DNA of 64,000 nt from a bacterium (GTDB lineage Bacteria; Zhuqueibacterota; QNDG01; JAGLOF01): NCBI GenBank assembly GCA_016934955.1, contig JAFGRY010000005.1, positions 27,967-91,966 of the forward strand, read 5' to 3'. Shown piece by piece: positions 4,761-42,059 of this stretch. How positions within the stretch are numbered: the first letter of the stretch is position 1; the number at the start of each line of letters is the position of its first letter. The position numbers and the translations under genes were made by a program. The notes below the pieces were generated by a model, which searched no databases, had not been told where the DNA came from, and saw only the letters and a program-made list of their open reading frames with translations.

Positions 4761-4772
4761 TGTGCCCCTCCC

Positions 4773-13662: not shown

Positions 13663-13802
13663 AATAATCCCTTTAACAATTAGATCACAAGGCAGAATAC
13701 ACACATGACCCAGTCGATCGATTCTGTCTCGAACAATTCCCGTACGCTTCGCAGGTGTCTGAGACGCTACGGGACTGATTTGTCTGCCCTTCACCGAGGA
13801 AG

Positions 13803-13836
13803 AGCGGTCCGCACGCTGGATACGGTGCGGACCGCT
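13803..13836 (-). terminator. Perfect 12-bp GC-rich stem-loop downstream of the 821-aa gene (terminator-like, no U tract)
   Basis: AGCGGTCCGCAC (13803-13814) and GTGCGGACCGCT (13825-13836) are exact reverse complements with a 10-nt loop. The structure sits 16 nt beyond the stop at 13852. Confidence 0.5.
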
Positions 13837-13851
13837 TTCCCGGGTACTGTC

Positions 13852-19858: not shown

Positions 19859-20848
19859 TCACCGTATCAGTGATTCGATCTCCGCCATCTCTCCGGCCGT
19901 CAACGGCCCGAACTCCATGGCCGCTGCATTTTCGGTCACCTGCGCCACCGTCCTGAACCCGGGGATCGGAATCGTCTTCGGACTGCGGGCCCAGAGCCAG
20001 GCGAGGGCGCCCTGGGAAACGGTTCTGCCGTTGCCGGTGAGCACCGCCTTTACCGCATCCCGTTTCTCCAGCCATTCGGGATTCGGGGTGCCGTTCCTGA
20101 AATATTTCATCCAGTCCGGGGCCTTTTCGCCGCGGACATCATTCATGGCGGCCTTCGTGGCGGCGGTATACGTTCCGGTCAGCAGGCCCATGGCCAGCGG
20201 GCCCCTGTTGATGGCCGCCAGATCGTGCTCTTCACACACGGCGATCACATCCGGATTGTCATCGAGCACGTTCAGCTGCAGCTGAATCGCCGTACAGTGC
20301 TCCCCTTCGGCAAACACCCGGGCCCGGTCGGCGAAATCGGTGCTCCACCCGTAACTTCGTATTTTGCCTTCGGCAACCAGCATCTCCAGCGTCTCTCTCA
20401 CCGGCACCGCCTTATCCGCTGGATAGCCGTTGTCATGGAACTGGTAGAGATCGATATAATCGGTATCGAGGCGGCGCAGGGACGCATCACAGGCGGAGCG
20501 TATCCCTTCCGGAGTCACATCCGATCCCGTCACCTGCCTGGTTTCCTCATTGAAAACGGCGGTGAATTTCGTTGCGATAACGACATCGGACCTGCGGGTT
20601 CCAAGCGCTTTCCCCAGCACTTTTTCACTGTGGCCGGCACCGTAGACGTTGGCCGTATCGAAAAAGGTCACGCCCAGATCGAGGGCCGCGTGTATGGCCC
20701 GGACAGATTCTCTGTCATCCACTTCACCCCAGCCGTGGGGGGTTTCCCCCTCCCAGAAGGGGCCGCCGATGGCCCAGCAGCCAAGCCCCATGGCACTGAC
20801 CTCAATTCCCGATCTCCCCAAAAACCGTTTCATTCCATCCTCCTTCAC
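19859..20848 (-). CDS. Aldo/keto reductase family oxidoreductase
   Basis: 329 aa with AKR signatures: GRSGIEVSAMGLGCWAIGG, FFDTANVYGAGHSEKVLGKAL, DYIDLYQFH, SYGWS and IPIPGFRT. An internal ATG at 20833 (MKRFLGRSG) is an alternative start. Confidence 0.9.
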   Translation of the reverse strand: MKEDGMKRFLGRSGIEVSAMGLGCWAIGGPFWEGETPHGWGEVDDRESVRAIHAALDLGVTFFDTANVYGAGHSEKVLGKALGTRRSDVVIATKFTAVFNEETRQVTGSDVTPEGIRSACDASLRRLDTDYIDLYQFHDNGYPADKAVPVRETLEMLVAEGKIRSYGWSTDFADRARVFAEGEHCTAIQLQLNVLDDNPDVIAVCEEHDLAAINRGPLAMGLLTGTYTAATKAAMNDVRGEKAPDWMKYFRNGTPNPEWLEKRDAVKAVLTGNGRTVSQGALAWLWARSPKTIPIPGFRTVAQVTENAAAMEFGPLTAGEMAEIESLIR

Positions 20849-20855
20849 GCTTCTG

Positions 20856-21935
20856 TTATCGCTCCGGCATCAATTCAGGATACCGGTCGTACATCACTTG
20901 TTTCGCTTTCCGGTCGACGGTGAACAATCCCCAGTGTTTTTCCGCCCCCAGCGGGTTCAGATCGGGATTGCCGTCGGGTTTCCAGTCTTCATCGAACGCT
21001 TCAAAAAAGAACGCGGTAATATTCATCTCTGCGGCCCAGTCATAGAGCTCGCGGAAATAGCGGGCCTGTTTCTCCTCGCTCGCCCGCTCCCCGAACTCAT
21101 TGGCAATGGTAGCCCAGCCCGCTTCCCCGATGATCATGGGACTGTCCGGAATCGTCTTCCTGACCTCCTGAATGTTCTCGATGGTGAAAGAGAGGCCTTC
21201 ATCGATATCCTTTCCTTCCCAGAGCGGGTAGGTATGCACCATGATGAAGTCGACCACCTCGGCCAGCGGAGCCCCGTGGTCCCGCCACCAGGCGAAATTG
21301 TCGGCAACGGTAACCGGCTGCTCGATCGCCGCCTGCACCTGCCGCACATAGGCGACAACCGATTCCAGGGGCACCATGTGGTCGTTCCAGCTGACCAGCG
21401 CCTCGTTCCCGATGTTCACCGCAACCACGATATCGTTATACTCGTTGGCCAGCCTGATGGTGTTGTCGATCTGCCGTTCGTTTTTCCGCCGGTTGGCGTC
21501 CAGCGTTTCCTGCGGAATCGGTCCGCTCAGCCACCAGCACCCTTCGTGATTGCTGAATTCTGCGTCGAGCCAGGCTCCCAGCAGCACCTTCATCCTGATG
21601 CCGTGGTCCCTGATTACCTTCAGAACCATCTCGGAGTTTTCATTGGAATCGTAGAGCCTGATCAGATTGAACAGATCGTCTTTGCTCAGGATCCGCAGAT
21701 CTTCCAGAATTTCCGCTTCGGACGGATTGACGGCGCCGCTGCCGCGGTCGGGATGCTGGCCGTGCCTGAAACCGGAGTAGGCCACCGCCCGCACTTCACC
21801 GGCGAGCAGATGGCGCTTCTGCTGTTTGACGGCTCCGCTGATCGGGGTGTCGCTGGTGCACCCTGAAAACAGAAACAGGGCCAGGAACAGCATCGCTGCG
21901 GATAATCCGCAGGCGGGTATGCCGGTGGATTTCAT
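20856..21935 (-). CDS. GH17-like beta-1,3-glucanase/transglycosylase, lipoprotein
   Basis: 359 aa with lipobox LFLFSGC. The TIM-barrel pattern fits GH17: AVAYSGFRHGQ, acid/base candidate VNIGNEALV, nucleophile candidate IIGEAGWAT, and FEAFDEDWK..EKHWGLF. Confidence 0.75.
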   Translation of the reverse strand: MKSTGIPACGLSAAMLFLALFLFSGCTSDTPISGAVKQQKRHLLAGEVRAVAYSGFRHGQHPDRGSGAVNPSEAEILEDLRILSKDDLFNLIRLYDSNENSEMVLKVIRDHGIRMKVLLGAWLDAEFSNHEGCWWLSGPIPQETLDANRRKNERQIDNTIRLANEYNDIVVAVNIGNEALVSWNDHMVPLESVVAYVRQVQAAIEQPVTVADNFAWWRDHGAPLAEVVDFIMVHTYPLWEGKDIDEGLSFTIENIQEVRKTIPDSPMIIGEAGWATIANEFGERASEEKQARYFRELYDWAAEMNITAFFFEAFDEDWKPDGNPDLNPLGAEKHWGLFTVDRKAKQVMYDRYPELMPER

Positions 21936-23227
21936 GGGTCTCTCCTTCCTTGATGTGCTTTCACATAAAATGGAATGTTTGCGTGGGCGCCGCTGCCGCT
22001 GTTGTCATGCGCATACACGAACAGACGGTAGGGGCCCTCGCTTCGGGGGACGGTAAACGTGAGTGAAGCCGCCTGCGCGCTGATGCGCACCTCCTGCGCC
22101 GCCGGGGGCCGCATTTCCGCATCACCGCCCGTTCCCTTATCCGTGGTTTCATGCAGGATCTCCCACGCCAGCGTCAGCGTATCACCGTCCGGATCGCTGA
22201 CATCGGCGACGGCCCGGGCCTCTCTTCCCGGCTGCAGGACGATACTGTCCGCCGCCCGTTTCCCTTCCAGTTCCAGGGAAACGAGACGGGGCGCCCGGTT
22301 TTCAGGCCAGTTCCCCTTCCAGAGCCGGTGCATCACATCCACCGCTTCCGTCTTCTCCCCCTCCGGAAGAAACATGCTGTACCAGGTGGCGGTGCGTTCC
22401 TGCTTGGAGCCCCAGAGAAAGACATAGCTGCCGAGACAGAGCGGATCGTTTTCAATATAATCGTTGTATTCTCTCAGATAGAGATCCGCTTTCTCGCTGC
22501 TGGTGAACTCAATGGGTTCGTCCCAGGAGGTTCTTCCGACCTCCCAGTGTCCGAAGGTGCCCCACTCGCCCACTATGTAGGGGCCCTTCCACCCGTACTC
22601 CCGGATGACCCGGGGAAGCGCCGACAGGGCGGCGTAACAGTTAACGCCGAGAATATCGATGCTGGGGCACCTCTCCTGAATATAGGCGACCTCTTCTTTC
22701 TCGATGAACGCCGTCACGGTCATGGTTGGATGGCGTCCGTCAACCTCATGGATATAGCGGGCCACCTCTTCGACCGCGTTCCAGACCGCGGGGTTGGTGT
22801 AGTTGAGATCGAGCTCGTTGCCGATGCCCCAGACGAGCAGAGCGGGATGATCCTTGTAGGCGAGCACCGCTTTTTTGATCCGCTCGAACTGCCGGCGCAC
22901 CGTTTCGGGATCACTGTAATCGAATCCCTGCCGCTCCTGGTCGAGCCAGATGCCAGCGCAGACGGTAAGTCCCAGCGCCTCAGCCCGGGAGAATGCCTCT
23001 TCCCACTGATCGCTCCCCCAGGTCCTGACCGAATTACCGCCGTATTCGGCAAGGATATCGTAGTGGCCGGTTATTCCGGCGCCCTTAATATAGAAGGCCT
23101 CGCCGCCGCGGAACAGCCGGTATCCCGCTTCTGTATTGCGCACCTCCACCCGCACCGCATGATCCTGGCTGCTGGCGGCGGCCGCCGCCAGCGCGATCAG
23201 CAGTATCAGCGTCACTGTTCTTCTCAT
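21932..23227 (-). CDS. Clan GH-A glycoside hydrolase with C-terminal Ig-like domain (possibly GH158-like endo-beta-1,3-glucanase)
   Basis: The likely start is ATG 23227 after GGAGG (MRRTVTLILLIALAAAAASSQ). TIM-barrel motifs include LLVWGIGNELDL (acid/base) and IVGEWGTFG (nucleophile). A C-terminal ~110-aa beta-sandwich is present (..VADVSDPDGDTLTLAWEI..YRLFVYAHDNSG). The subfamily assignment is a guess from architecture. Confidence 0.6.
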   Translation of the reverse strand: MRRTVTLILLIALAAAAASSQDHAVRVEVRNTEAGYRLFRGGEAFYIKGAGITGHYDILAEYGGNSVRTWGSDQWEEAFSRAEALGLTVCAGIWLDQERQGFDYSDPETVRRQFERIKKAVLAYKDHPALLVWGIGNELDLNYTNPAVWNAVEEVARYIHEVDGRHPTMTVTAFIEKEEVAYIQERCPSIDILGVNCYAALSALPRVIREYGWKGPYIVGEWGTFGHWEVGRTSWDEPIEFTSSEKADLYLREYNDYIENDPLCLGSYVFLWGSKQERTATWYSMFLPEGEKTEAVDVMHRLWKGNWPENRAPRLVSLELEGKRAADSIVLQPGREARAVADVSDPDGDTLTLAWEILHETTDKGTGGDAEMRPPAAQEVRISAQAASLTFTVPRSEGPYRLFVYAHDNSGSGAHANIPFYVKAHQGRRDP

Positions 23228-23262
23228 ACCATCCTCCGCCTCTTCGACATGGGTCACATCGT

Positions 23263-25440
23263 TCAGTCCCTGAACTCGAATGTGCCGCACAGGCCTCCCG
23301 CGGAATCCCCGCCGATCCATACCTGGAACGTGCCGGGTTCGGTCACCTCTTCCAGGCGCGGATTGTGAAAGGAGAGATCGGCTGCGCTCAGGGTGAAGGT
23401 CACGGTCATCGATGCTCCGGGCTTCAGCCGGACCCGGGTGAATCCTTTCAACTCGCGTACCGGACGGACCACGCTCGCCACCAGGTCGCGGACGTAGAGC
23501 TGCGCCACCTCCTCCGCTTCAACGGACCCGGTATTGGTGACAAGCGCGGAGACGGTGAGGGCTCCCTCACTGCCGATCCCGTCCGCCGAAAGCTGCAGAT
23601 CGCTGTACTCGAAGGTCGTGTAGGAAAGACCGTATCCGAAAACGAACCGGGGCTCGTACCCGGCATCTATGTAATGGGACTCATTGCCCAGGGAATTCTG
23701 CACGGCCCGCACCGGAATGTCGTCGATATGGGTAAAGTGCTCTTTTACGGGAGGCCGGCCCGTATTCCGGTGACTGTAATAGATCGGCACCTGCCCCGCC
23801 ATTTTCGGGAATGTCACGGGCAGTTTTCCGGAAGGGCTCTCCCTGCCGAACAGCAGGTCGACGATCGCCGGTCCGCCCATGGTGCCGGGGTGGAACATGA
23901 AAAGAATGCTGTCCACCTGGTCCAGGACACCGTCGAGGATGAGCGGCCGGCCGGCCATGATTATCAGGACGAGCGGTGTTCCGCAGGAAGCGAGTTCATG
24001 AATCAGCTCCTCCTGGGCGCCGGGAAGCGAAAAGTCCGCCCGGCAGTGGGCCTCGCCGGTGATGATCGCCTCCTCTCCCATGAACAGCAGTACCGCATCG
24101 GATTCCCGCGCCAGCGCGACCGCCCTGCTGAAATCCGAACGATCGGTTGAGCGGGAGATCTCCAGCACCGGCAGGTAGTCGATCCGGATGGCATCGCCCG
24201 CATAGTCCCGCAGCGCCTGAAGCGGCGTCACCGTGTCATCGATATTTCTGTCGAATGTCCAGGTCCCCAGCTGTTCATGGGGATCGTCCGCCATGGGGCC
24301 GAACACCGCCAGCCGCGCGACCTCCGGAGCCAGGGGGAGCGCGCCCGTGCCGTTCTTGAGCAGGATGGCGCTCTGGAGCGCGGTTTTTCTGGCTGCGGCA
24401 AGATGTCCTGCGTTCAGCGGCGCCGGGAATTTCGCCGGATCGGTGTAGGGATCCTCAAAAAGACCCAGCCGGAATTTTACCCCAAGAATTCGGCGAACCG
24501 CGTCATCGATCAGTTCCGGCGCGAGCCTGCCCTCGCTCACCAGCGCCTCCAGATGCGTTTCATACACACGCGACGCCATCTCCATGTCCATGCCCGCCGT
24601 CATTGCTTTTTCAGCGGCCTCCCTGTCATCGGCGCAGTATCCGTGGATGATCATTTCCTGAATGGAATTATAGTCGCTGATCACGAATCCCGGGTATTGC
24701 CACTCTCCCTTCAGAACGGTGCGGAGCAGGAACGCATCGCCGGTGCAGGGAATGCCGTTCAGATCGTGAAATCCGCTCATGAACGAGGCCACGCCTTCAT
24801 CCACACATGCCTTGAAGGGCGCCAGATACACATCCCGCAACAGTGTCTCCGGAATGTGCGCGCTGTTGTAATCCCGCCCGCCCTCGGCCGCGCCGTACCC
24901 GGCGAAGTGTTTCGCGCAGGCGGCGATGGAACCGGGAGCGGCGAGATCCTCTCCCTGAAATCCCCGGACCATGGCCGCGCCCATCACCGAGGTCAGGCAG
25001 GTATCTTCGCCGAAGCTCTCGGCGATGCGGCCCCAGCGGGGATCTCTGGCGATGTCGACCATGGGCGCCAGTGTCCAGTTGACTCCTGTCGCCGCCGCTT
25101 CCAGGGCGGCGATGCGCGCGCCCTGCTCCACCAGTTCCGGATTCCAGGTGGCGGCCAGTCCCGGATTTATGGGGAACAGCGTTCTGAACCCGTGAATGAC
25201 ATCCCGGGCGATGAGGAGCGGGATGCCGAGACGGCTTTCCTCAACGGCGATTTTCTGGATTCTGTTGACCGTATCGGGATCCGCCTCATTGAGAACGGAC
25301 CCGACGCTGCCGCCGCGAATGCGGTCTTCATTGCCCTCCGCGCGGTCGCACTGCATCAGCTGCCCGATCTTTTCCCGCAGGGTCATCCGCCGCAGCAGCG
25401 ACTCCGCCCTGCTCTCACTGTCGTCTTTTTTGGTCATCAT
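23263..25440 (-). CDS. GH3 beta-glucosidase (BglX-like), no signal peptide (cytoplasmic)
   Basis: The likely start is MMTKKDDSESRAESLLRRMTLREKIGQLMQ at 25440. GH3 strings include GIPLLIARDVIHG, PRWGRIAESFGEDT, KHFAGYGA and GFVISDYNSI (nucleophile Asp region). A C-terminal FnIII-like domain is present. Confidence 0.9.
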   Translation of the reverse strand: MMTKKDDSESRAESLLRRMTLREKIGQLMQCDRAEGNEDRIRGGSVGSVLNEADPDTVNRIQKIAVEESRLGIPLLIARDVIHGFRTLFPINPGLAATWNPELVEQGARIAALEAAATGVNWTLAPMVDIARDPRWGRIAESFGEDTCLTSVMGAAMVRGFQGEDLAAPGSIAACAKHFAGYGAAEGGRDYNSAHIPETLLRDVYLAPFKACVDEGVASFMSGFHDLNGIPCTGDAFLLRTVLKGEWQYPGFVISDYNSIQEMIIHGYCADDREAAEKAMTAGMDMEMASRVYETHLEALVSEGRLAPELIDDAVRRILGVKFRLGLFEDPYTDPAKFPAPLNAGHLAAARKTALQSAILLKNGTGALPLAPEVARLAVFGPMADDPHEQLGTWTFDRNIDDTVTPLQALRDYAGDAIRIDYLPVLEISRSTDRSDFSRAVALARESDAVLLFMGEEAIITGEAHCRADFSLPGAQEELIHELASCGTPLVLIIMAGRPLILDGVLDQVDSILFMFHPGTMGGPAIVDLLFGRESPSGKLPVTFPKMAGQVPIYYSHRNTGRPPVKEHFTHIDDIPVRAVQNSLGNESHYIDAGYEPRFVFGYGLSYTTFEYSDLQLSADGIGSEGALTVSALVTNTGSVEAEEVAQLYVRDLVASVVRPVRELKGFTRVRLKPGASMTVTFTLSAADLSFHNPRLEEVTEPGTFQVWIGGDSAGGLCGTFEFRD

Positions 25441-25501: not shown

Positions 25502-28500
25502 TCAGGACGACTTGCGGGGGAGCGGCCACCAGACATCGATTCTCCGGATCTCCTCGGTTCTCCGGAAGATCGACCCGCTCAATGAGGCGGCGAGTTCCGG
25601 GCCCGGCATGGATTCACGCCGGCCGTCCGAGCGGGTAATGGTGATGCTGCGGGCGTCCGCCCGATGGTAGACAACAGGCACCTGGACAACGGTAAAGGCC
25701 AGAGAGCCCGGCTCCAGGAGCAGCGACTGTTCGCTGCCCTCGACATCGATATAGGTGAAGGTCTCCTCCCGCGGGAGATACTCTTCGTCGCGCAGCAGGG
25801 AGGAGGAAAAACCGATCCGGCCTTCCCGGACCGTCACCCCCAGTTCGCCGAACCGCGAGAGGATGTCCTCCTTTACCTGGCCGGTCATCCCGGGCTGCTG
25901 GGCGCCGAGATGGGCGGGTGTGTGCGAATAGGGATCGGTGGGAAATGCACCGTACGCATCCGGAGATTTGGTAACGCCGATCCCCGTTCTGATCTCGTAG
26001 TAGCGGTCGCGCAGATCCTGCTGCACCGGTGCGGGTGCTCCCTCGCGGACGGCCCGGTAAAAGCATTCCTTGACCGCCAGAAGCAGCTTCGAGACCATGT
26101 GCCAGTAGACGGATCCCAGTCCTTCATACTTGAAAAAAGTTCCGGAACGCCCGGTAAACGACTGGTGATCGAACATCTCCTCGTACATAGTCACCAGCAG
26201 GGCCTTCTCCCGCTCGAAATCGAGGGCGGGATCATCGATGGCCACACCGGTCAGGGCCTCCCTGAGCATGGCCGCATTACGGAAGGAACCGTTGAAATGA
26301 AAGCCGCCTTCGCCGTCCCGGACCACGATGCGTTCATCCCCGGCAGCAGCGAGCGCCGGGATGAGGCGCGACCGTCCAACCGCCCCGGCGGGGATGGTGT
26401 TCTTCTCGACGAACCGGGGCAGCGTTTTGTCGGGATAGAGCAGATAGGCCGCCTGATCCTCCCGGTAGAGGCTGCTCGCCCGCAGCGCATCGAGCACCGC
26501 GACGCTCTCTTCCGGGGTAAGATATCCGGAACTGAGCACCGCGACCTGTCCCTCCAGCATCTCGGAGAGACGGCGGATGGACACGGCGCCTTCGGTCAGG
26601 GTTATCAGATTATAGGCGTGATACAGGCCGTCTTCTCTCCTGCTGGCGGCAATGGTGTGATCGACATACTCCAGCGCCTCCCGGCAGAGGTCCTGCAGCG
26701 ATCCGGGGCCGATCCCCCGTTTCCCGCCGGGGAACCCGCGGCTGTAGACCGCTTCACGGTAGACGCTCCCCGCTGTTCCCAGCATATCCATACACGCTCT
26801 CCGGTCGCCGTTCGACATACTCCCGGTGAGCAGGGAGCGGTTCTCGCCGAGAATGCGGACGATCGAGTCCAGGAAATCGGCGGCCGCGACGGAAACGGCC
26901 ACCGGCTCATCGAGCAGGGAAAAGAGCTCCCGGCAGAAGGAAAGGTGCCGTCTCAGGTAAAAGAGCGTCACCATCGAAACGCCGTATCCCACCAGCGCAT
27001 TATTGGCGTCGTTCCACTCCGGCCGCTGGGTGTTCATCCAGATCCCCGCCCCCGGAATGAAGTTGGAAAGTTTCACCAGCAGCGGTACCAGCAGCTTTTC
27101 CGTGAGAGTGACCAGGTAGAGGTCCTGCTCACCGGTGAGCACGCATTTCCCGTCGGAACCCAGAGCGGCCGTGCGCTGTTCGATCGTCTCTTCGAGATCC
27201 GCGTCGAAGGTGACGGTGTGGTGAGGATCGGCGCAGATCGCTTCGTAGGACGCGATACGATAGGGCACATTGGCATAGGTGAACATATCCCGGGCGAGCA
27301 GCGTCCGCAGGGCCCCGGGGTGGTAGTGACGTGAGAGTTCGAGCAGCTTGAGCAGATAGATGATCTGATGGTCACCCCAGTATCCTATATAGGACCAGGC
27401 GTCGTCCGGGTCGATAATCTCCCATTCAAACCCGTCCCGGCCGATCCGGTAGGGGTTGTATCCGTCGGGGGTGGAACCGTTGACGAACTTGGTGATCATC
27501 GCTTCGATATAGCCGGGAAAGGAGAGGGCCAGGGCTTCCCAGTTCTGAAAGATGTCCCGCCAGTTGCCCTCGTAATTGAGATTCCTGCCGCCGAACGCAT
27601 CCTTGATATCGATGGAAAAGCGGTTCCAGGGCCGGCTGGGATCACCGTGACGGCGGCTGAATGTCAGCGGCAGGTACTCATACCCGAGTTTTTCCAGGGC
27701 GGGATCGTTCCTTTCCCGGAGCGCTGCCAGCAGGGCCTCGTAATCCATTGCCGCCGGCAGGGACTGCAGATAGCCGCGGTGAGTGCCGGCTGTTCTCGAT
27801 GAGGCCTTTTCAGCGAAACGAATGAAATCGGCGGTTTCAATGTGGTACCCGCCGTCAAAAATGCCGCCCCGCATGACGTTGAAGAGCACGTTGGCAAAAT
27901 GCCGCGAGGTGCTCAGCCTGTCTGCGGTTTTTTGCAGACCGTCGGCGGCGGCAACGGTTCGCACCAGGTTTTCCGTCCCCGCCCTGACATCGGCTTCGAT
28001 GTCACCGGCCCGGTCAGCGGCCGACCTGAGATACGCTGCAAGATCGACCACGCCCGCGGTATCGATGGCGACATCGGCGGCGATGTACCAGACCCGTTCA
28101 GCGGCCGCCGGAACTTCGACGCGCGCGTGGATGAAATAGGCGCCCCGCACGCCCCGCACATCGGTTTCCCCGCTGACGGGGAGACCCCGGCGGAACCGGT
28201 CCAGCTGCCCTGACGAGAGCAGCACCGCATCCGGCTGCAGTCCCGCGGACCAGACAACCGTCGCCCGCATCGCTTCACTCGGCTCCGCTTTGTCTACGGG
28301 AATCGAGCTCAGCGAATAGATACCGATGCCGGTGTCTTCCAGAAGTTCGTTTTTCTTGTAAGCGTCCGCCAGGGTGCTGTATTCCATCTGGAACCGCTGG
28401 TTGATGCCGCAGGCGAGAATGTTCTGAATACCGTCGAGCACCGTCACGTTCGCGGCGGTGGTGGAGTGATTGAGCAGACGGGAGCGTTTGATGAACCCGA

Positions 28501-28987
28501 AGCGCTCGCTGTTCATCCAGGCGTAGCTGAACGTGAGACCGAGATCATGGTTGATCTCTTCAAAGAGCAGTTTGTTCCCCCTGATGTTCTTGTAGCAGTT
28601 GCGGACCGTCTCGTACACATCCGGACATCGCTTCGAAAACGGTTCCCAGAGATACCGCTTACCCCCGGCATGCACGATCACCAGGGTCGCGCTGCCGGTG
28701 ATCCCGGTACTGTCGAGAATTCTGTCATCGGTGTCATAGGGAAACAGCGCGGTATCCGCGTTCCTCCGCCCCGCGGAGAGCGCGCCGCTGGACCAGATGA
28801 ACATCCAGTGATCCGAGTCGCTGACGATGCTCATGAAAAAGGGATCCATGCGGTCGTAATGTGCTATCTTGTAGTATGTCTCTCCCTCGAGTTCGACATA
28901 CTCACCCGAGACGGTCCGGTCCCCGGGGCGCAGAAGCGCATCGCCGAGGAAGAGCGGATCGGCTGCTTCAGTGCGGCGGTCATGCAT
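25502..28987 (-). CDS. Large cytoplasmic protein; candidate GH94-clan (GH149/GH161-like) beta-1,3-glucan/oligosaccharide phosphorylase
   Basis: 1161 aa with no signal peptide. Its start overlaps the transporter stop by 8 nt. Two motifs occur in the same order as the GH94 active-site motifs I recall: NWRDIFQNWE (aa 475-484, cf. GFRDSNQD) and RPEWNDANNAL (aa 655-665, cf. RADWNDCLNL). The function is not established. Confidence 0.35.
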   Translation of the reverse strand: MHDRRTEAADPLFLGDALLRPGDRTVSGEYVELEGETYYKIAHYDRMDPFFMSIVSDSDHWMFIWSSGALSAGRRNADTALFPYDTDDRILDSTGITGSATLVIVHAGGKRYLWEPFSKRCPDVYETVRNCYKNIRGNKLLFEEINHDLGLTFSYAWMNSERFGFIKRSRLLNHSTTAANVTVLDGIQNILACGINQRFQMEYSTLADAYKKNELLEDTGIGIYSLSSIPVDKAEPSEAMRATVVWSAGLQPDAVLLSSGQLDRFRRGLPVSGETDVRGVRGAYFIHARVEVPAAAERVWYIAADVAIDTAGVVDLAAYLRSAADRAGDIEADVRAGTENLVRTVAAADGLQKTADRLSTSRHFANVLFNVMRGGIFDGGYHIETADFIRFAEKASSRTAGTHRGYLQSLPAAMDYEALLAALRERNDPALEKLGYEYLPLTFSRRHGDPSRPWNRFSIDIKDAFGGRNLNYEGNWRDIFQNWEALALSFPGYIEAMITKFVNGSTPDGYNPYRIGRDGFEWEIIDPDDAWSYIGYWGDHQIIYLLKLLELSRHYHPGALRTLLARDMFTYANVPYRIASYEAICADPHHTVTFDADLEETIEQRTAALGSDGKCVLTGEQDLYLVTLTEKLLVPLLVKLSNFIPGAGIWMNTQRPEWNDANNALVGYGVSMVTLFYLRRHLSFCRELFSLLDEPVAVSVAAADFLDSIVRILGENRSLLTGSMSNGDRRACMDMLGTAGSVYREAVYSRGFPGGKRGIGPGSLQDLCREALEYVDHTIAASRREDGLYHAYNLITLTEGAVSIRRLSEMLEGQVAVLSSGYLTPEESVAVLDALRASSLYREDQAAYLLYPDKTLPRFVEKNTIPAGAVGRSRLIPALAAAGDERIVVRDGEGGFHFNGSFRNAAMLREALTGVAIDDPALDFEREKALLVTMYEEMFDHQSFTGRSGTFFKYEGLGSVYWHMVSKLLLAVKECFYRAVREGAPAPVQQDLRDRYYEIRTGIGVTKSPDAYGAFPTDPYSHTPAHLGAQQPGMTGQVKEDILSRFGELGVTVREGRIGFSSSLLRDEEYLPREETFTYIDVEGSEQSLLLEPGSLAFTVVQVPVVYHRADARSITITRSDGRRESMPGPELAASLSGSIFRRTEEIRRIDVWWPLPRKSS

Positions 28988-31172
28988 CGCTTTTTCTCTT
29001 TGCCAGGTCTTGCTCTATCTTTTTCATGGTGGTATCATCGAGTTCATAAAAGAACGCGGCGATCACGGCGATCAGCGTTCCGGCAGCGGGAATAAAACTC
29101 ATCATCAGCCTGATACCGTGCAGCGCCCCGGCGGTCTGCTCCACATTCGGCTGGAAATGGAAGATCGAAAGCAGCCATCCGGCCAGGCCGCCGCCCAGGG
29201 CCATGCCGAATTTCTGGGCAAACGTGGCGGCCGAAAAGACAAGGCCCGTGGCCCGCCGCCTGTTCTTCCACTCGGAATAGTCGGCCGTGTCGGCATACAT
29301 CGCCCAGAGCAGCGGCGCCTGGGGAGCCATGACAAAGGAAATCAGAATGTGAAGAGCGAAGACCAGGGTTATCTGTTCCCTGGGCACGTAGTAGAAAAGC
29401 GCCGTCAGAACGGTGGTGAGTCCCATTACAATAATATAAAATTTCTTCTTCCCGAGACGACGGGACAAAAACTCCGTACAGGCGACACCGGCGATAACCG
29501 CGACAGTCCCCAGCACCATGAAGAGCGAAGCAAGGAGCTCGCTGCCGACATAGTACTTGAAGTAATACATGATCGCTCCCATCCGGATGATCACATAGCC
29601 AAGCGTGAAGATGCCCATGACCAGCAGTATCATCCAGGGCCGGTTACGGGAGAGATCTTTCAGGTCGTTTCTCAGTGAGGTTTGCTGATCCCGGGGCGGC
29701 TGTACCCGTTCCTTTGTCGTCCGGAAGGTAATGTAGAAGAGGATGCTGGCAAGGACCCCGAAGGCGATGAGGGTGAACTGGAACCCTCTGGCGACATCCA
29801 CCTTTTTCACCGAATAGGTAATCGCATCGCCGTCCAGATCCTTGAAGGTGCCGGAGAGATCGAGCGAATAGTCCCCGAATCCCTCATTCAGCACCAGGTT
29901 TTCGGGAGGATTGAAGAGCGCCGGCGCATTGTTACCGGCGGCGGTCACACTGACGTTCATCCCGGCAGTCGCGAACCCGCCATGCCCGTCGGCCGCGGTT
30001 ATCTCTATCCTGGAAATGCCGGATTCTCTGAACCGCAGCACCAGGTCACTTCCGGATATACGGGCCGACACCGCCGCCCCGTTCCCGGAAACGGCCGTAT
30101 AGTTCAGCGCATCCCCGTCCGTGTCGGTGAAGAGAGTGGCCAGGTCGATGGTTTCCGGTTCCGGCACGCGGGCTCGTTCCATATCGGCCGGCGGAGAGAC
30201 GACAACGGGCCGATGGTTTCCGGCGGCATTGACGTACACCGAAAAGGATTGATTCTTTTGCCCGTAGGTGTTGTCACGGGCACTGACCGTAACCCGTGAG
30301 CATCCGGGCCCCTTTTCCTTCAGCTCCAGCCGGCTTCCCGACAGTGCGGTCTCGATGACATCGGCGTCCGCGTTGTCCACGCTGTACGTCAGTGATTCAC
30401 TGTCACTGTCCGTGAAAACCGTATCCAGGTCGAGAACGACGGATGAGAATCCCTGCTCGAGCTGCAGATCCTCAAGGGGAGTGGTGACAACGGGCGGGAG
30501 TTCTCCTGTCCTGTTTATGTTGACGAGAAATTCGTTCGCCGCGGTGTTCGTACCATCATCGGCTTCGATAATGAATTTGGCCGTGCGGGTATCGACCTCC
30601 TGAATCGTCAGGACGGTGCCGGAAAGAGTGAACCCCTGATGCACGTTCCCGGTTGTGTTCACCAGCACCAGTGTGGCCCCCTGCACGATAAAGGCGCCCA
30701 CGAAGGCGAGGACGAACCGGTAGGTGGAGGCGCTGGTTCTCTGCATGGAATCCGGAGAGAGAACACCCATGAGCGCGGAATAGGGAATATTGATGGCCGT
30801 ATACGCCATCATCATCAGGATGTACGTGATATAGGCATAGACGATCTTGCCGCCGATATCGAGGTCGGGCGTCGTGAACATGAACACGCCGATGACCGCC
30901 ATGGGGATCATCATCCAGATGAGATAGGGACGGAATTTGCCCCATCTGGTATTCGTTCTGTCCGCGATGATTCCCATCATGGGATCATTGACCGCGTCCC
31001 AGAAGCGGGAAATCATGAAAAGGGTGCCGGCCACTGCCGCCGGAATACCGAACACATCCGTGTAAAAGAAAAGGAGAAAATTGATAAACATTTGAAAATA
31101 CAGATTGGAGGCGGTATCTCCAAGACCGTAGCCGATCTTCTCCTTCACCGAGAGTTTGTCACTCATGTCCAT
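28980..31172 (-). CDS. GPH-family (MelB/XylP-like) glycoside:cation symporter with a large inserted periplasmic repeat domain
   Basis: 730 aa. GPH signatures include GYGLGDTASNLYFQ, RFWDAVNDPMMGIIADRTNTRWGKFRPY and a central RTTKER loop. There are 12 hydrophobic segments, plus a ~290-aa hydrophilic insert between segments 5 and 6. Confidence 0.85.
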   Translation of the reverse strand: MDMSDKLSVKEKIGYGLGDTASNLYFQMFINFLLFFYTDVFGIPAAVAGTLFMISRFWDAVNDPMMGIIADRTNTRWGKFRPYLIWMMIPMAVIGVFMFTTPDLDIGGKIVYAYITYILMMMAYTAINIPYSALMGVLSPDSMQRTSASTYRFVLAFVGAFIVQGATLVLVNTTGNVHQGFTLSGTVLTIQEVDTRTAKFIIEADDGTNTAANEFLVNINRTGELPPVVTTPLEDLQLEQGFSSVVLDLDTVFTDSDSESLTYSVDNADADVIETALSGSRLELKEKGPGCSRVTVSARDNTYGQKNQSFSVYVNAAGNHRPVVVSPPADMERARVPEPETIDLATLFTDTDGDALNYTAVSGNGAAVSARISGSDLVLRFRESGISRIEITAADGHGGFATAGMNVSVTAAGNNAPALFNPPENLVLNEGFGDYSLDLSGTFKDLDGDAITYSVKKVDVARGFQFTLIAFGVLASILFYITFRTTKERVQPPRDQQTSLRNDLKDLSRNRPWMILLVMGIFTLGYVIIRMGAIMYYFKYYVGSELLASLFMVLGTVAVIAGVACTEFLSRRLGKKKFYIIVMGLTTVLTALFYYVPREQITLVFALHILISFVMAPQAPLLWAMYADTADYSEWKNRRRATGLVFSAATFAQKFGMALGGGLAGWLLSIFHFQPNVEQTAGALHGIRLMMSFIPAAGTLIAVIAAFFYELDDTTMKKIEQDLAKRKSDA
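29787..30659 (-). repeat. Tandem cadherin-like/He_PIG-type Ig repeats (half + 2 full + half) encoded inside the GPH symporter gene
   Basis: Full repeats cover aa 225-320 and aa 321-415. The recurring signatures are TDSDSESLTYSV, TDTDGDALNYTA and KDLDGDAITYSV. The flanking half-repeats (aa 181-224 and 416-459) align to the second and first halves respectively. Confidence 0.8.
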
Positions 31173-31264: not shown

Positions 31265-33442
31265 CTATTCAGCGATCGTTATCGTCACCCGTTCCGGCAC
31301 AGCGTCGGACGCATTTCCCGCGTAGAGCGAGTAGGCCCCGGGTTCCAGGTTCCACCCCGGAATCGATTCGTCATACCAGGCGAGATCATTGGTGTCGATG
31401 GTCAGCGTCACTGTCCGCTTCTCTCCCGGCTCCAGATACGTTTTCCGGAACGCTTTCAGCTCCTTGACCGCCCGCTCCACCGGAGAACCGGGCTTGCCCG
31501 CGTAGACCTGAACCACTTCCGCTCCCGCCCTGTCACCGCTGTTGCGAACGCTGCAGGTGACGATTATCGTTTCTCCCGCGGCATAGGATGGCTTGTCGGT
31601 GCGCAGGTCGGATATGGTAAACGACGTATAGGACAATCCGTGCCCGAACGCGAAGAGCGGCGTGATCTTCCTGGTATCATACCAGCGGTAGCCCACGAAG
31701 ATGCCCTCCTGGTAAACCTGCCGGCCGTCTTTCCCCGGATAGGACCGCTCGCCGTAAACATGCGCCGGACTGTCTTCGAGGCGGGCGGGAAAGGTAAACG
31801 GCAGTTTTCCGGAAGGATTGACATCACCGCTGATCACATCGGCGAGGGCGCGGCCGGCTTCACTGCCGAGGTACCAGGCCTGCATCACTCCCCGCACCCG
31901 GGAGAGCCAGGGCATGGACACGGCGTTGCCGCTGATCAATACGACGCCGATGTTTTCGCTGGCGCCGGTCAGCTCCTTCAGGAGGTCATCCTGGCCGAAG
32001 GGAAGGGCCAGGTCCCGCCGGTCCCCCGCCTCGCAGTCCTGACGGTAATTCTTGTTCAGGCCGCCGATAAAGAGCACTACGTCCGCGGCGGCGGCAGCCT
32101 GGACGGCGGCCCGGCGCAGCGAATCGGCGTCAAGCGGCGACGGCAGCTCGCGGCCGTAGGCCGGCGGCCCCGAGGCATAGCCCGGGGCGTGGATGATGGT
32201 CGCGTTTCGGAATCGCTTCCGCACTCCTTCCAGAGGTGATATCTCATGCTTCGCTTTCAGTTCCGACGACCCGCCTCCCGCGGTCATGGAACGGGTCGCG
32301 TTCTCTCCGATAACGGCGATGGTCATCTTTCTTTCGGGATCGAGGGGGAAAAAACCGTTCTCGTTCTTCAGCAGGACGATGCCCTCACGGGCAACGTTCC
32401 TGGCGACCGAGAGATGTTCCTCGTTATTCATGCGCCCCAGCGGGCGACCGGGATTCATGGTAGTGCGCAGCATCAGCCGCAGAATACGGCGAACTTTCTC
32501 ATCCACCACCGATTCGGCGATGTCACCGCTCCTGATCATCTCCCGGAACGGTTTCGCCAGGTAGTAGTAATCGTAGGCATTTTTTGTCGATGCGGTCAGC
32601 CCGTCGGTACCGGTGCCCATTTCGATATCGAGGCCGTTAAGGGCCGCTTCTCTGGTGTCGTGCACGGCGCTCCAGTCGCTGATCACCACTCCGTCGAAAC
32701 GCCATTCCCGTTTAAGAATCCTGGTGAGCAGCAGATCGTTCTGGCTGCAGTACTGTCCGCGGAAGCGGTTGTAGGCGCTCATCATCGACCAGAGCCCCCC
32801 CTTCTGCACCGCGGCTTTATAGGCGGGCAGATAGATCTCGTGCAGGGCTCTGTCACTGAGATCAACGTCGATGAAAAAGCGCCACTGCTCCTGGTTATTG
32901 AGCGCGAAATGTTTCAGACAGGCGGCGACGCCGTTCCGCTGCACCCCCTCTATGTAGGGCACCACCATCATCGAGGCCAGGTGGGGATCCTCACCCATAT
33001 ACTCGAAATTACGGCCTGAAAGGGGCGTGCGGTAGATATTGATCCCGGGACCGAGCAGCACGTCTTTCTTCCGGTAACGGGCCTCTTCGCCCAGGGCGAA
33101 TCCGTATTCCCCGGAGAGCCCCGGATTGAACGTTGCGGCCAGGCAGGTCAGTGCGGGGAACGCCGTTATGGAATCACTGGTCCAGCCGGCGTAATTCCAG
33201 CTGTCCCAGCTGATCTCGGCCCTGACACCGTGGGGGCCGTCGGCCATCCACAGTTCCGGAATCCCGAGGCGGGGCACTCCCGGTGAACTGAATTTCGACT
33301 GGGCGTGACACATGGCCACCTTTTCCTCCAGGGTCATGAGCGCGAGGAGGCTGTCTATGGTCTGTTCCATGCGCGTTTCCTGTACCTGTGCCTGTGTGCC
33401 GACGGTACAGAACAGCAGTATGGCAATGATCCTGTTCTTCAT
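31265..33442 (-). CDS. GH3 beta-glucosidase, secreted/periplasmic
   Basis: The likely start is MKNRIIAILLFCTVGTQAQ at 33442. GH3 strings include LTLEEKVAMCHAQS, GPHGVR, KHFALNNQE and GVVISDWSAV. A C-terminal FnIII-like domain is present. Confidence 0.9.
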   Translation of the reverse strand: MKNRIIAILLFCTVGTQAQVQETRMEQTIDSLLALMTLEEKVAMCHAQSKFSSPGVPRLGIPELWMADGPHGVRAEISWDSWNYAGWTSDSITAFPALTCLAATFNPGLSGEYGFALGEEARYRKKDVLLGPGINIYRTPLSGRNFEYMGEDPHLASMMVVPYIEGVQRNGVAACLKHFALNNQEQWRFFIDVDLSDRALHEIYLPAYKAAVQKGGLWSMMSAYNRFRGQYCSQNDLLLTRILKREWRFDGVVISDWSAVHDTREAALNGLDIEMGTGTDGLTASTKNAYDYYYLAKPFREMIRSGDIAESVVDEKVRRILRLMLRTTMNPGRPLGRMNNEEHLSVARNVAREGIVLLKNENGFFPLDPERKMTIAVIGENATRSMTAGGGSSELKAKHEISPLEGVRKRFRNATIIHAPGYASGPPAYGRELPSPLDADSLRRAAVQAAAAADVVLFIGGLNKNYRQDCEAGDRRDLALPFGQDDLLKELTGASENIGVVLISGNAVSMPWLSRVRGVMQAWYLGSEAGRALADVISGDVNPSGKLPFTFPARLEDSPAHVYGERSYPGKDGRQVYQEGIFVGYRWYDTRKITPLFAFGHGLSYTSFTISDLRTDKPSYAAGETIIVTCSVRNSGDRAGAEVVQVYAGKPGSPVERAVKELKAFRKTYLEPGEKRTVTLTIDTNDLAWYDESIPGWNLEPGAYSLYAGNASDAVPERVTITIAE

Positions 33443-33515
33443 TTTCGCTGTTTCTCCACTCACGGACGCGAACCCCGCGGTCCGCCCGTATAATATAATT
33501 ATTCAGCTCCGCCGG

Positions 33516-40588: not shown

Positions 40589-42043
40589 TTATTTCAACCC
40601 GAGTTCTTTGCACATTCTGTAGTAATTGGGAGGAGCGAGTCCGAGCAGGCGGGCGGCTTCAGCATCGGACTGAACCCTGTTTCGCACATGCAGGAAATAC
40701 TGGCGCCGAAAACCCCGTTCCATATCACGCAGAGGGGCCAGCGCATTGTCGGGAATCTTGAACGAGATATCCTCTTGCTCCTCCCTTGAACCGGAGACAA
40801 TGCCGAGCGCGCTGTTCACGTCATCGAGGGTAATCGTGCCTTCACTTATAATGAGCAGCCGCTGCACCACGTTCTGCAGTTCCCGGACATTGCCGGGCCA
40901 GGCATAGCCAAGCAGCGCCCGCCTTGCATCAGGAGTCATTGTGGAAGCGCTGCGGTCAAGGGTGAGCGAATAGAAGGAGAGAAAATGTTCTATGAGAAGG
41001 CCGATATCACCCTCCCGGCCCCGCAGCGGAGGGGCGTGAAGGGAAACGACGTTGAGCCGGTAGTAGAGATCCTCCCGGAATCGCTTTTCCTTTATCTCCT
41101 TTTTCAGATCCTTGTTTGTAGCGGCAATGATCCGGACATCGACCTTTATTCTCTTTTTCCTGCCTATTTTGTCTATCTCTCCCTCCTGAAGCACTCGCAG
41201 CAGCGTGGACTGCACGGACATGGGCAGCTCGGAAATTTCATCGAGAAAAAGGGTCCCCTTGTCCGCCAATTCGAAAAATCCGGGTTTCTCCTTTCCCGCA
41301 CCGGTGAAAGATCCCTTTTCAAACCCGAACAGCTCGCTTTCTATCAGGTTGCCCGGCAGACTGCCGCAGTTTACCGCCAGAAAGGTCTCGAAGCGCCGGT
41401 CGCTCTGATAATGGATATTACTGGCTATCAGCTCTTTCCCGGTCCCCGATTCACCGCTCACCAGCACGTTCATGGAATGAAGGGCGTACTTTGCAATACT
41501 GGAACGCAGCTTTCTCATACTATCCGATTCTCCGATGATTCTCTTCTGCTCCAGAATGTCGTTCACCGACTGCTCGAGTTTGCTGTGCGCCTGCCGCTGT
41601 CGCTTTTCCAGCTGCCGCTTGTCGTACGCGTTGACGATACTGAGAACAAAGTCGGTTGGCTGGTAAATGAGGTTTTCAATATCGCCGGGATATTTGGTAC
41701 AGTACCACATGGCACCGGCGTCGAGGAGCCGGTTGGCAAAATCATAATCGGTCACATTGATGGTCATCTTGGTGACAACGATAATCTGAAGGGTGGCGTC
41801 GATTTCCCGGATCTTTCGAATAAGGCTTTCACCCCGCAGGCCGCCGGCGATTTGAAAATCCATAATGATCACATCATAGAAATCCGGCCTGGCTTCAATA
41901 AGATCGATGGCACCCATACCGTCAGCGACGATATCCTTGATATGGATGCGTTCACTGAAGGGTTCGAGGGTTTTGTGTATACGCTGAACGTCGAACGCTT
42001 CATCTTCTATGAGGAGAACGTGAATGGGTTTTTGATGCGCCAT
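40589..42043 (-). CDS. Sigma-54-dependent response regulator (NtrC-type enhancer-binding protein: REC + AAA+ + HTH)
   Basis: The likely start is MAHQKPIHVLLIEDE at 42043; the longer ORF-track N-terminus overlaps the kinase gene. REC domain has the acceptor Asp in VIIMDFQ. The AAA+ domain has Walker A GESGTGKE, a GAFTGA-type loop (FEKGSFTGAG), and RFREDLYYRLNV. A C-terminal Fis-type HTH is present (AARLLGLAPPNYYRMCKELG). Confidence 0.9.
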   Translation of the reverse strand: MAHQKPIHVLLIEDEAFDVQRIHKTLEPFSERIHIKDIVADGMGAIDLIEARPDFYDVIIMDFQIAGGLRGESLIRKIREIDATLQIIVVTKMTINVTDYDFANRLLDAGAMWYCTKYPGDIENLIYQPTDFVLSIVNAYDKRQLEKRQRQAHSKLEQSVNDILEQKRIIGESDSMRKLRSSIAKYALHSMNVLVSGESGTGKELIASNIHYQSDRRFETFLAVNCGSLPGNLIESELFGFEKGSFTGAGKEKPGFFELADKGTLFLDEISELPMSVQSTLLRVLQEGEIDKIGRKKRIKVDVRIIAATNKDLKKEIKEKRFREDLYYRLNVVSLHAPPLRGREGDIGLLIEHFLSFYSLTLDRSASTMTPDARRALLGYAWPGNVRELQNVVQRLLIISEGTITLDDVNSALGIVSGSREEQEDISFKIPDNALAPLRDMERGFRRQYFLHVRNRVQSDAEAARLLGLAPPNYYRMCKELGLK

Positions 42044-42059
42044 TGGGTGCCCGGTCCTT

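Follow-up and report, generated by a model that had tools for sequence, protein, structure and literature searches.

A symporter of the GPH/MelB family, encoded on the minus strand of the window (i.e., the whole stretch of 64,000 nucleotides of bacterial DNA that was analysed), contains 291 aa of folded beta domains, as modelled by AF2, between the transmembrane helices TM5 and TM6, in contrast to its MelB/GPH relatives, in which loop 5-6 comprises about 14 residues. The whole data set is best explained, with a probability of roughly 45%, by an accessory split-domain module on a carrier of beta-1,3-glucan oligosaccharides. In bacteria, MFS and GPH carriers are commonly seen as bare 12-helix proteins, a view of the MFS that would be extended by a bacterial symporter whose periplasmic module is folded and conserved. 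A search of the literature for reports of periplasmic Ig or cadherin domains in GPH or bacterial MFS carriers gave no relevant result, and the known add-ons to MFS proteins are mostly cytoplasmic C-terminal fusions (PMC10710835).

Carrier identity and membrane topology

The gene and the parts of its product are as follows.

28980..31172, minus strand: whole gene, GPH/MelB-family cation:oligosaccharide symporter with a predicted periplasmic insert; intact 730-aa ORF
30651..31172, minus strand: N-terminal part of the carrier, TM1-TM5, aa 1-174 (AF2 helices and alignment with MelB 4M64)
30501..30647, minus strand: H1, second half (strands D-G) of the predicted split domain Da, aa 176-224 (hhalign, AF2)
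30213..30500, minus strand: R1, full cadherin-like unit with a degenerate DxDxD motif, aa 225-320 (alignment, hhalign, AF2)
29928..30212, minus strand: R2, full cadherin-like (Big_9) unit, aa 321-415 (Pfam Big_9, AF2)
29787..29927, minus strand: H2, first half (strands A-C) of the predicted split domain Da, aa 416-462 (hhalign, AF2)
28980..29786, minus strand: C-terminal part of the carrier, TM6-TM12 and C-terminal helix, aa 463-730 plus stop (AF2, MFS_2)

The first-pass annotation, made from the sequence alone, had claimed a GPH carrier with 12 transmembrane helices, and this identity is borne out by two family profiles and by superposition on MelB. Both Pfam MFS_2 (PF13347; 4.8e-99, 332.2 bits vs. 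a cut-off of 27) and NCBIfam TIGR00792 (gph; 399.7 bits vs. a cut-off of 231.35) match the 730-aa protein in two stretches flanking the insert, and the AF2 model superimposes on MelB structures 9OLI and 7L16 with target-normalised TM-scores of 0.87–0.88, showing the 12-helix MFS fold. The N-terminal helices of the carrier span residues 9-40, 45-72, 81-98, 106-138 and 142-174 in this model, and its C-terminal helices lie within 460-729, where the second MFS_2 stretch covers aa 461-713. The TM2 cation site of MelB (R52, D55, N58 and D59) aligns to R56, D59, N62 and D63 in the 4M64 alignment, and these four residues are invariant across an alignment of 82 sequences. The likeness to MelB/GPH (TC 2.A.2) therefore lies in the HMM match, the 12-helix fold and this R/D/N/D site. 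The melibiose-type sugar site is absent, MelB K18/D19, D124 and W128 being replaced in the alignment by S22/N23, N128 and S132, suggesting that the 730-aa carrier takes a different sugar. Insert-less homologues are 448–469 aa long with a loop 5-6 of about 14 residues, vs. a 291-aa loop here, so the unusual length pointed out in the first pass is real; the 730-aa protein is an architectural variant of the known GPH family, set apart by the length of loop 5-6.

The deposited annotation of the carrier gene gives a product of just 400 aa, starting at the internal Met331, which could be taken as a sign of an assembly or annotation artefact, i.e., a chimeric junction or an ORF called wrongly. However, the 730-codon frame is intact and its N-terminus fits the family consensus, the GC content of the insert matches that of its flanks, no near-identical DNA repeats occur across the insert, and at least 64 sequence clusters found by homologue search, from independent projects, share the same TM5-TM6 insertion point and layout. 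Numerous independent contigs from JGI, ENA, NCBI and Logan also show this architecture, which argues against a chimeric assembly, and an artefact is thus given next to no weight. With its annotation cut to 400 aa, a carrier of this kind can escape notice in public records.

The N-terminus is placed inside by homology to MelB, and the positive-inside count agrees, with 17 K+R per 72 residues in the cytoplasmic-side loops and 1 per 28 in the short outer loops. The insert is acidic (42 D+E vs. 20 K+R). On the MelB topology and the positive-inside rule, the insert is predicted to face the periplasm, as had been claimed for the TM5-TM6 loop, and a cytoplasmic insert is rejected by the same counts and the MelB alignment. 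TM5 and TM6 would be helices of one and the same six-helix bundle, the N-terminal one, so that the module should ride on it without blocking the rocker-switch cycle.

Repeat units and probable closure of the insert

The insert (aa 172-462, positions 30659-29787; 291 aa) is ordered as second half, full unit, full unit and first half of a ~95-aa cadherin-like (Big_9) unit. This layout, proposed in the first pass, was confirmed by both pairwise and profile–profile comparison. In pairwise alignment, R1 (225-320) matches R2 (321-415) with z = 24.9, a score reached by 0 of 300 shuffles, while H2 (416-462) matches the first half of R1 with z = 15.4 and H1 (176-224) its second half with z = 4.5; when H2 and H1 are re-joined in this order, they align with R1 over its full length (z = 17.7). 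In profile–profile comparison (hhalign) of the repeat units built from 55 family members, R1 and R2 match at 99.8% probability, H2 maps to unit positions 1-46 (98–99%, E of 1e-14 to 1e-19) and H1 to positions 51-94 (96.7%, E of about 4e-10), and no mutual similarity between H1 and H2 was found.

The reading of the unit as cadherin-like (Big_9 or bacterial cadherin-like Ig domain; PF17963, PF17892) also stands. Big_9 matches R2 alone above threshold (26.6 bits vs. the Pfam gathering cut-off of 23.6); R1 and the re-joined Da on their own fall below it and are homologous to R2 by hhalign (96.7–99.8%). The closest solved sequence match of the unit is a cadherin EC domain, which is marginal (E = 0.004). 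Structural matches of the insert domains by Foldseek include cadherin, protocadherin and SraP, and outside carriers the best match is given by a GH107 fucoidanase, through its Ig-like part. The conserved motif residues of R2 are F348, D350, D352, D354 and L356, with the DxDxD conserved at 85% or above; the DxDxDG-type loop is largely kept in H2 (F443, D445, G448) and degenerate in R1. An intein or mobile element was set aside, as the units are cadherin-like and all families that Pfam gave for the protein are of MFS or Ig/cadherin type. In the DNA, a 45-nt segment occurs three times at a spacing of exactly 285 nt (95 codons); its copies are only 64–71% identical and none is near-identical, ruling out recent DNA duplication or assembly collapse.

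It had further been suggested that the two terminal halves complement each other into a third domain. AF2 models the full protein with a pLDDT of 83.7 and a pTM of 0.74, and DSSP assigns 4 + 7 + 7 + 3 strands to H1, R1, R2 and H2. The strands of H1 (181-184, 187-191, 198-205 and 210-220) start about six residues past TM5, R1 and R2 each have seven strands (within 236-315 and 331-410, respectively), and the strands of H2 (426-429, 434-438 and 452-459) are followed directly, with no linker, by helix 460-485 (TM6). The blocks of Da reach a pLDDT of 85–93 in the full protein, equal to or above that of the intact units. In a natural short variant (P0057), AF2 gives 4 + 3 strands, a low-confidence linker of 12 residues and no other beta domain, with a pLDDT of just 67–86 for Da. 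H1 and H2 are hence probably packed into one beta-sandwich, Da, which would close the insert, as judged from their complementary profile matches, the AF2 strand pattern with its high pLDDT, and the natural H1-linker-H2 deletion variants, which are predicted to have arisen independently at least four times.

According to this model, the chain would exit TM5, form strands D-G of Da, pass through R1 and R2, return to form strands A-C of Da and enter TM6. R1 and R2 would thereby nest between the C- and N-termini of the joined Da, and the chain, by closing on itself, would keep TM5 and TM6 adjacent. Split domains are in principle also able to complement in trans, and the AF2 runs, which modelled a monomer, are compatible with an inter-protomer swap, in which H1 and the H2 of an adjacent carrier form a pair and drive the formation of dimers or chains. 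However, such a swap would require TM5 and TM6 of different protomers to adjoin, with strand C joined to its helix without a linker and strand D lying about six residues past TM5; moreover, even the shortest of the natural linkers, with about 19 residues, can span one domain within a chain, and the monomer models are confident (pTM of 0.74 and 0.81). The swap is therefore regarded as very improbable.

Distribution and evolution of the insert

Insert-bearing carriers occur in dozens of uncultured bacteria, with Krumholzibacteria, Fidelibacterota and KSB1 as the named groups, names which rest on few source labels. The long-form insert measures 288–299 aa in nearly all members, and 321 aa in one (P0065). 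Short forms, with inserts of 110–142 aa and of 227 aa, retain exactly H1 and H2, joined by a linker of roughly 20–50 residues, and in the carrier tree they appear at no fewer than four separate places within the long-insert clade. From their positions, R1 and R2 are taken to have been deleted independently in at least four lineages, with H1 and H2 kept each time. Mean pairwise identity is 48–53% for H1 and H2 vs. 40% for R1 and R2, and the insert as a whole diverges at about three times the rate of the carrier. The insert is a clean case of protein evolution, for which these natural deletion variants serve as controls.

Insert-less orthologues with about 70–79% carrier identity occupy equivalent loci. 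In a carrier-only NJ tree, which is without support values, the insert-bearing sequences are not monophyletic, and some sequences without an insert are placed among them; a single gain of the insert is thus not established, as this tree splits the insert-bearing sequences. The fast divergence, the repeated loss of R1 and R2 and the nested insert-less sequences also fit a weakly selected passenger.

As to its origin, the insert is collinear, at 35–41% identity, with uninterrupted Big_9 arrays of T9SS-tailed proteins (e.g., P0156 and P0125). Such arrays in T9SS-sorted surface proteins share the repeat unit but are long, linear and part of secreted proteins, whereas the present insert comprises exactly three unit-lengths, out of register, inside a membrane carrier. 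The insert may therefore have originated as a three-unit, out-of-register slice of a Big_9 tandem array, with a T9SS surface protein as the donor. Such a slice of whole-unit length can close on itself when cut out of register, which would make it insertable into a short loop. When the insert profile was searched against 1.84 billion representatives, giant repeat proteins led the list, with scores that sum over their repeats; a scan of genome contigs with the single insert returned two unrelated Big_9-type matches (L001 and L002), and a word-indexed search with the insert only recovered just three proteins and missed the family.

The same origin could also have left a fold-constrained passenger, i.e., an in-frame array slice captured by chance, tolerated through the complementarity of its ends and selected only to fold, which persists because a working loop is restored only by precise excision. 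The pace of divergence relative to the carrier, the multiple losses of R1 and R2 (Da being maybe retained merely as an anchor of TM5 and TM6), the insert-less sequences within the insert-bearing set and the equivalent loci that function without an insert would all be expected of such a passenger. On the other hand, the three-unit length varies by no more than about ten residues among nearly all long forms, across three named groups and down to 32–34% insert identity, and conservation of the DxDxD motif is 85% or higher in both R2 and Da. Export of 290 hydrophilic residues is costly, so that long retention suggests a benefit. A mere passenger is accordingly considered unlikely.

Locus, probable cargo and possible role of the insert

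The carrier lies within a same-strand beta-glucan utilisation locus of about 36 kb, which contains a TonB-dependent receptor, T9SS-sorted GH5/CBM enzymes, a GH30, three GH3 genes and a GH149. The direct neighbours of the carrier gene are as follows.

25502..28987, minus strand: downstream GH149 beta-1,3-glucan phosphorylase; its start overlaps the carrier stop by 8 nt
31265..33463, minus strand: upstream GH3 with an N-terminal signal-like sequence (Glyco_hydro_3, Glyco_hydro_3_C, Fn3-like)

The GH149 neighbour scores 1624.6 bits against the NCBIfam equivalog NF058639 (cut-off 1150) and matches PDB 6HQ6, a beta-1,3-oligosaccharide phosphorylase, with E = 0 over residues 22-1152; no signal peptide is evident. 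Its overlap with the carrier gene points to laminari-oligosaccharides as the probable cargo, which gene context makes the most likely choice, and the beta-glucan context noticed earlier is hereby confirmed and narrowed to beta-1,3-glucan. The imported laminari-oligosaccharides would be phosphorolysed by GH149 in the cytoplasm. The upstream GH3, separated from the carrier by 92 nt, is a candidate periplasmic partner. A context of GH30/GH16/GH17/GH3 with either GH149 or GH94 is common to five other insert-bearing loci and to the insert-less Melioribacter locus, and among the loci compared no partner gene separates the insert-bearing from the insert-less ones.

In the available text of Kuhaudomlarp et al. 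(2018, PMC5827456), type II GH149 clusters include a PF13347 carrier, whose partners are alike, i.e., a TonB-dependent receptor, GH16/GH17-type enzymes and GH149. That carrier is described there as an ordinary MFS transporter, with no mention of a periplasmic domain in the same text, and, unlike those clusters as the text presents them, the present lineages are FCB-type with T9SS-sorted enzymes. According to published abstracts, laminarin is among the most abundant marine glycans; if the module is functional, it bears on the uptake of laminarin products by uncultured FCB-group bacteria (Krumholzibacteria, Fidelibacterota and KSB1).

The insert-less orthologues in equivalent loci suggest that the insert is an accessory which may be dispensable for transport, and it is tentatively proposed, by analogy, that its likeliest role would be that of a periplasmic scaffold for docking partners, or of a substrate holder near the carrier mouth. 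The docked partners could be the periplasmic exo-glycosidases of the locus. In PepT1 and PepT2 (SLC15), trypsin is docked by extracellular Ig-like domains whose function does not depend on transport (Beale et al. 2015, PMC4597091). Like the present carrier, PepT1/2 carry tandem Ig-like domains on an outward loop between helices of one six-helix bundle, and for them, too, docking of a hydrolase beside the carrier has been proposed, with the domains dispensable for transport (PMC4597091). However, PepT1/2 are eukaryotic POT carriers with two domains in normal order in the TM9-TM10 loop, none of them split or permuted, whereas the GPH carrier here has three units in the TM5-TM6 loop; PepT1/2 are thus unrelated to it and comparable in function only, and their bacterial homologues are stated to lack the large extracellular domain (PMC4597091).

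Carbohydrate binding by the insert itself was also weighed, i.e., a tethered glycan-binding module whose units bind beta-1,3-gluco-oligosaccharides, possibly in a Ca2+-dependent manner, and concentrate the substrate at the carrier mouth. The beta-sandwich is a common fold of carbohydrate-binding modules, the insert is seen only in carriers of beta-glucan loci, and the top structural match outside carriers, the Ig-like part of the GH107 fucoidanase, would also be in line with such a module. A precedent is given by cadherin-like domains of Saccharophagus degradans, which are reported as carbohydrate-binding modules (Fraiberg 2011, cited through PMC7326809). However, the insert is without tryptophan and its conserved positions are nearly all core or structural (core hydrophobics, glycines and the DxDxD motifs), and this absence of conserved aromatics counts mildly against a classical carbohydrate-binding site. 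Furthermore, no CBM family in Pfam matches any unit, and R1 and R2, being the least conserved parts and lost several times, would be odd as a site for a chemically invariant ligand. A glycan-binding module is thus rather unlikely.

It is possible, if doubtful, that Da, R1 and R2 form a closed and rigid three-domain ring on the N-bundle which acts as a built-in periplasmic hand-off device and captures either laminari-oligosaccharides or the exo-glycosidases by which they are released. If so, outer-membrane uptake would be coupled to inner-membrane symport, and with this ring a secondary carrier would have its own equivalent of a tethered binding protein, made in one capture of an array slice that was out of register. 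The P2 loop of MalF in the E. coli maltose ABC importer is a folded periplasmic domain which docks the partner MalE, and it is likewise a folded periplasmic loop domain in the membrane subunit of an importer of sugar oligosaccharides; however, MalF belongs to an ABC transporter and P2 is a single domain rather than a split repeat, whereas the present carrier is secondary. On the practical side, cryo-EM of such a carrier, which is about 48 kDa in size, might profit from the rigid soluble module as a natural fiducial.

The carrier and its periplasmic insert

The gene encoding the carrier is located in the window as follows:

28980-31172, (-) strand: carrier ORF, intact frame, 730 aa

Pfam MFS_2 matches the product (4.8e-99) in two stretches with the insert between them, and NCBIfam TIGR00792 (gph) scores 399.7 bits vs. 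a cut-off of 231, confirming the GPH family assignment of the first-pass annotation, which had also recommended the Pfam scan. Direct mapping placed the insert at 30659-29787, i.e., aa 172-462, in exact agreement with the coordinates first read from the sequence. This insert comprises a half-unit H1, two full units of ~95 aa (R1 and R2) and a half-unit H2. An alignment to MelB revealed that the cation-site residues are retained in the carrier (R56, D59, N62 and D63) and that the sugar-site residues differ. The public record MBN2414572.1 (P0121) presents the same gene as a 400-aa 'MFS transporter' starting from the internal Met331, within R2, and thus without the N-terminal 330 codons (TM1-5, H1 and R1), although the reading frame is uninterrupted in the window; the deposited product therefore conceals the architecture.

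Lysine and arginine amount to 17 per 72 residues in the cytoplasmic-side loops and to 1 per 28 residues in the short opposite-side loops, and the insert itself is acidic (D+E 42 vs. K+R 20). The N-terminus of MelB lies inside the cell. The loop charge counts and the alignment to MelB thus place the insert in the periplasm, as had been proposed. The expected cadherin-like nature of the units also held: R2 alone exceeds the Pfam Big_9 threshold (26.6 vs. 23.6 bits), with less strong matches to Cadherin_5 and Cadherin_4, and the sole relative of the unit profile by sequence among solved structures is the cadherin EC domain of CDHR2 (5CYX), with a marginal E = 0.004.

Repeat layout and probable closure of the split domain

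In pairwise comparisons, R1 (225-320) aligns with R2 (321-415) at z = 24.9 and H2 (416-462) with the first half of R1 at z = 15.4, while the match of H1 (176-224) to the second half of R1 is weak (z = 4.5); H2 and H1 re-joined in that order align with R1 from end to end (z = 17.7). To strengthen the weak H1 link, a profile-profile comparison with 55 family members was run, which assigned H2 to unit positions 1-46 (probability 98-99%) and H1 to positions 51-94 (probability 96.7%, E about 4e-10), and detected no relationship between H1 and H2, showing that the two complement each other, without overlap, as halves of a single ~95-aa unit. The half-full-full-half layout noticed in the first reading is borne out by both comparisons. 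The 95-codon period can still be traced in the DNA as three copies of a 45-nt segment (29819-29863, 30104-30148 and 30389-30433; 64-71% identity), which encodes the LDL..F.D.DGD.L motif and recurs at a spacing of exactly 285 nt. A search of the insert region for near-identical DNA repeats found none, and the base composition of the insert equals that of its flanks.

AlphaFold2 was applied to the full carrier with an input alignment of 82 sequences (pLDDT 83.7, pTM 0.74) and predicted the following elements:

TM5, aa 142-174: helix
H1, aa 181-220: four strands
R1: seven strands
R2: seven strands
H2, aa 426-459: three strands, the last one running straight into TM6
TM6, aa 460-485: helix

The pLDDT of the split-domain blocks (85-93) is equal to or above that of the intact units. 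Foldseek superimposes the carrier on MelB (target-normalised TM-score 0.87) and matches the insert to cadherin, protocadherin, SraP and GH107 Ig-like arrays with an rmsd of 20-30 Å, so the modelled inter-domain geometry differs from their linear rod.

A whole-protein search, clustered at 90% identity, recovered at least 64 clusters with an insert at the identical point. Nearly all of the ~55 long-form clusters carry 288-299 aa (321 aa in P0065, a carrier of 791 aa), a length maintained down to 32-34% insert identity. The short forms comprise eight clusters with 110-142 aa, read as H1, a linker of ~20-50 residues and H2, and one with 227 aa, in which R1 alone is missing. A neighbour-joining tree (carrier columns only, no support values) places the short forms at four or more separate points within the long-insert clade, suggesting that R1 and R2 were deleted independently several times, with both halves retained each time. 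The AlphaFold2 model of the shortest form, P0057 (pLDDT 81, pTM 0.81; domain blocks 67-86), shows the same 4+3 strands with a 12-residue low-confidence linker, strand C again entering TM6, and P0057 contains no further beta domain as a packing partner for the halves. Mean pairwise identity is 48-53% for H1 and H2 vs. 40% for R1 and R2, and conservation within the insert falls on core hydrophobics, glycines and DxDxD motifs.

The variants keeping both halves, the P0057 model and the higher conservation of H1 and H2 argue that these halves would form one intrachain domain, Da, whose C- and N-termini would flank the nested R1-R2 (probability roughly 0.8). An inter-protomer swap appears very improbable. 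The original suggestion that the terminal halves complement each other into a third domain is well supported by the profiles, the predicted strand pattern and the deletion variants.

Origin and putative role of the module

The insert profile matched 24,379 representative proteins at E <= 0.001, with repeat proteins of 1,300-7,800 aa at the top of the list. Insert residues 11-286 of 291 are collinear with uninterrupted arrays of such proteins at 35-41% identity, the two closest arrays being Big_9, in proteins with a T9SS sorting tail. Judged from these alignments, the insert looks like an out-of-register slice of exactly three units from an ordinary tandem array, which would necessarily carry complementary halves at both ends. 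The insertion junction is clean, i.e., GGDNQS-VGF in insert-less relatives vs. GKDNES, insert, KGFQ in KSB1-type carriers. The insert-bearing sequences do not form a single clade in the neighbour-joining tree without support values, in which KSB1-type carriers split off at a deep level and five sequences lacking the insert fall among those that have it.

Since close orthologues do without it, the module is accessory. It evolves ~3x faster than the carrier, and some lineages can dispense with R1 and R2. A fold-constrained passenger without a specific role is an unlikely reading. The two helices flanking the insert, TM5 and TM6, are part of the N-terminal bundle, and the transport cycle, as far as the MFS fold indicates, should therefore be unhindered. 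The extracellular Ig domains of PepT1/2 are independent of transport and dock trypsin (PMC4597091), and a docking or scaffold role is tentatively favoured for the module. Bacterial cadherin-like domains have been reported to bind carbohydrate (Fraiberg 2011, as cited in PMC7326809); the insert lacks tryptophan and shows no obvious conserved platform of aromatic residues, it is related to generic surface-protein repeats, and direct glycan binding is put as low as the passenger reading. The remaining probability falls to some other role.

A full-text literature search found no described GPH or bacterial MFS carrier that bears an Ig or cadherin module in the periplasm. The domain fusions listed in a review on how bacterial transporters are regulated are mostly cytoplasmic and C-terminal (PMC10710835), and bacterial homologues of PepT1/2 lack the extracellular domain (PMC4597091). 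Taken singly, carrier family, repeat family and gene partnership are all known; their combination is new, as is the predicted self-closing split-domain topology.

Gene context and candidate cargo

Immediately downstream of the carrier lies a GH149 beta-1,3-glucan phosphorylase gene (1624.6 bits vs. an equivalog cut-off of 1150), whose product matches PDB 6HQ6 over the full length. The two genes overlap by 8 nt (28980-28987), with the GH149 start codon at 28987 and the carrier stop codon at 28980-28982, which suggests translational coupling. The same-strand cluster spans about 6.3-42.2 kb of the window and encodes a PorV-like protein, a TonB-dependent receptor, a CBM9 protein with a T9SS tail, an SSF symporter, GH30, three GH3 genes, two GH5+CBM enzymes and a sigma-54 activator. 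Comparable loci of five other insert-bearing carriers and of an insert-less Melioribacter orthologue encode GH30, GH16 or GH17, and GH3, plus a GH149-sized or GH94 phosphorylase. The beta-glucan context anticipated earlier is upheld by the overlapping GH149 gene and these loci. In the type II GH149 clusters described in PMC5827456, a PF13347 carrier already accompanies GH149. The gene context points to laminari-oligosaccharides as the probable cargo.

Further features of the window are:

3846-6059, (+): 737-aa ORF without Pfam family
7438-10926, (-): 1162-aa ORF without Pfam family
16490-18100, (-): ordinary SSF sodium:solute symporter, 536 aa, adjoining GH30
20649-21866, (+): 405-aa ORF without Pfam family
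21932-23320, (-): recurrent 425-462-aa gene
40589-42241, (-): sigma-54-dependent activator (AAA+ enhancer-binding protein), at the upstream end of the cluster
48622-51615, (-): 997-aa ORF without Pfam family

The SSF symporter is a second candidate inner-membrane sugar carrier, and the locus may thus import both oligosaccharides and monosaccharides. In place of the sigma-54-dependent activator, related loci contain LacI-type (L007) or hybrid two-component (L005) regulators. The recurrent gene, also found at 11097-12374 of L008 and 10452-11732 of L007, sits immediately upstream of GH149 in two related loci, and in the window its position is one gene farther downstream. With a weak GH2_C TIM-barrel match only, or no Pfam match, its product may be an unclassified clan GH-A beta-glucanase. 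In L009 (8001-14285), P0065, which has ~25 additional residues within R2, directly precedes genes for an insert-less MFS_2 paralogue of 453 aa and a GH94 phosphorylase, so both carrier forms coexist in one locus. On the 1-Mb contig L003, which carries the protein P0029, a GH149 homologue (10964-14420) is called as two genes of 152 and 975 aa; both match the window GH149 in consecutive segments by tblastn, and the split is probably a frameshift or sequencing error. The C-terminus of the 1162-aa ORF product gives a weak PorZ/T9SS-like match; the ORF lies between the PorV-like gene and the TonB-dependent receptor, and L003 has a similar pair of a 992-aa protein and PorV.
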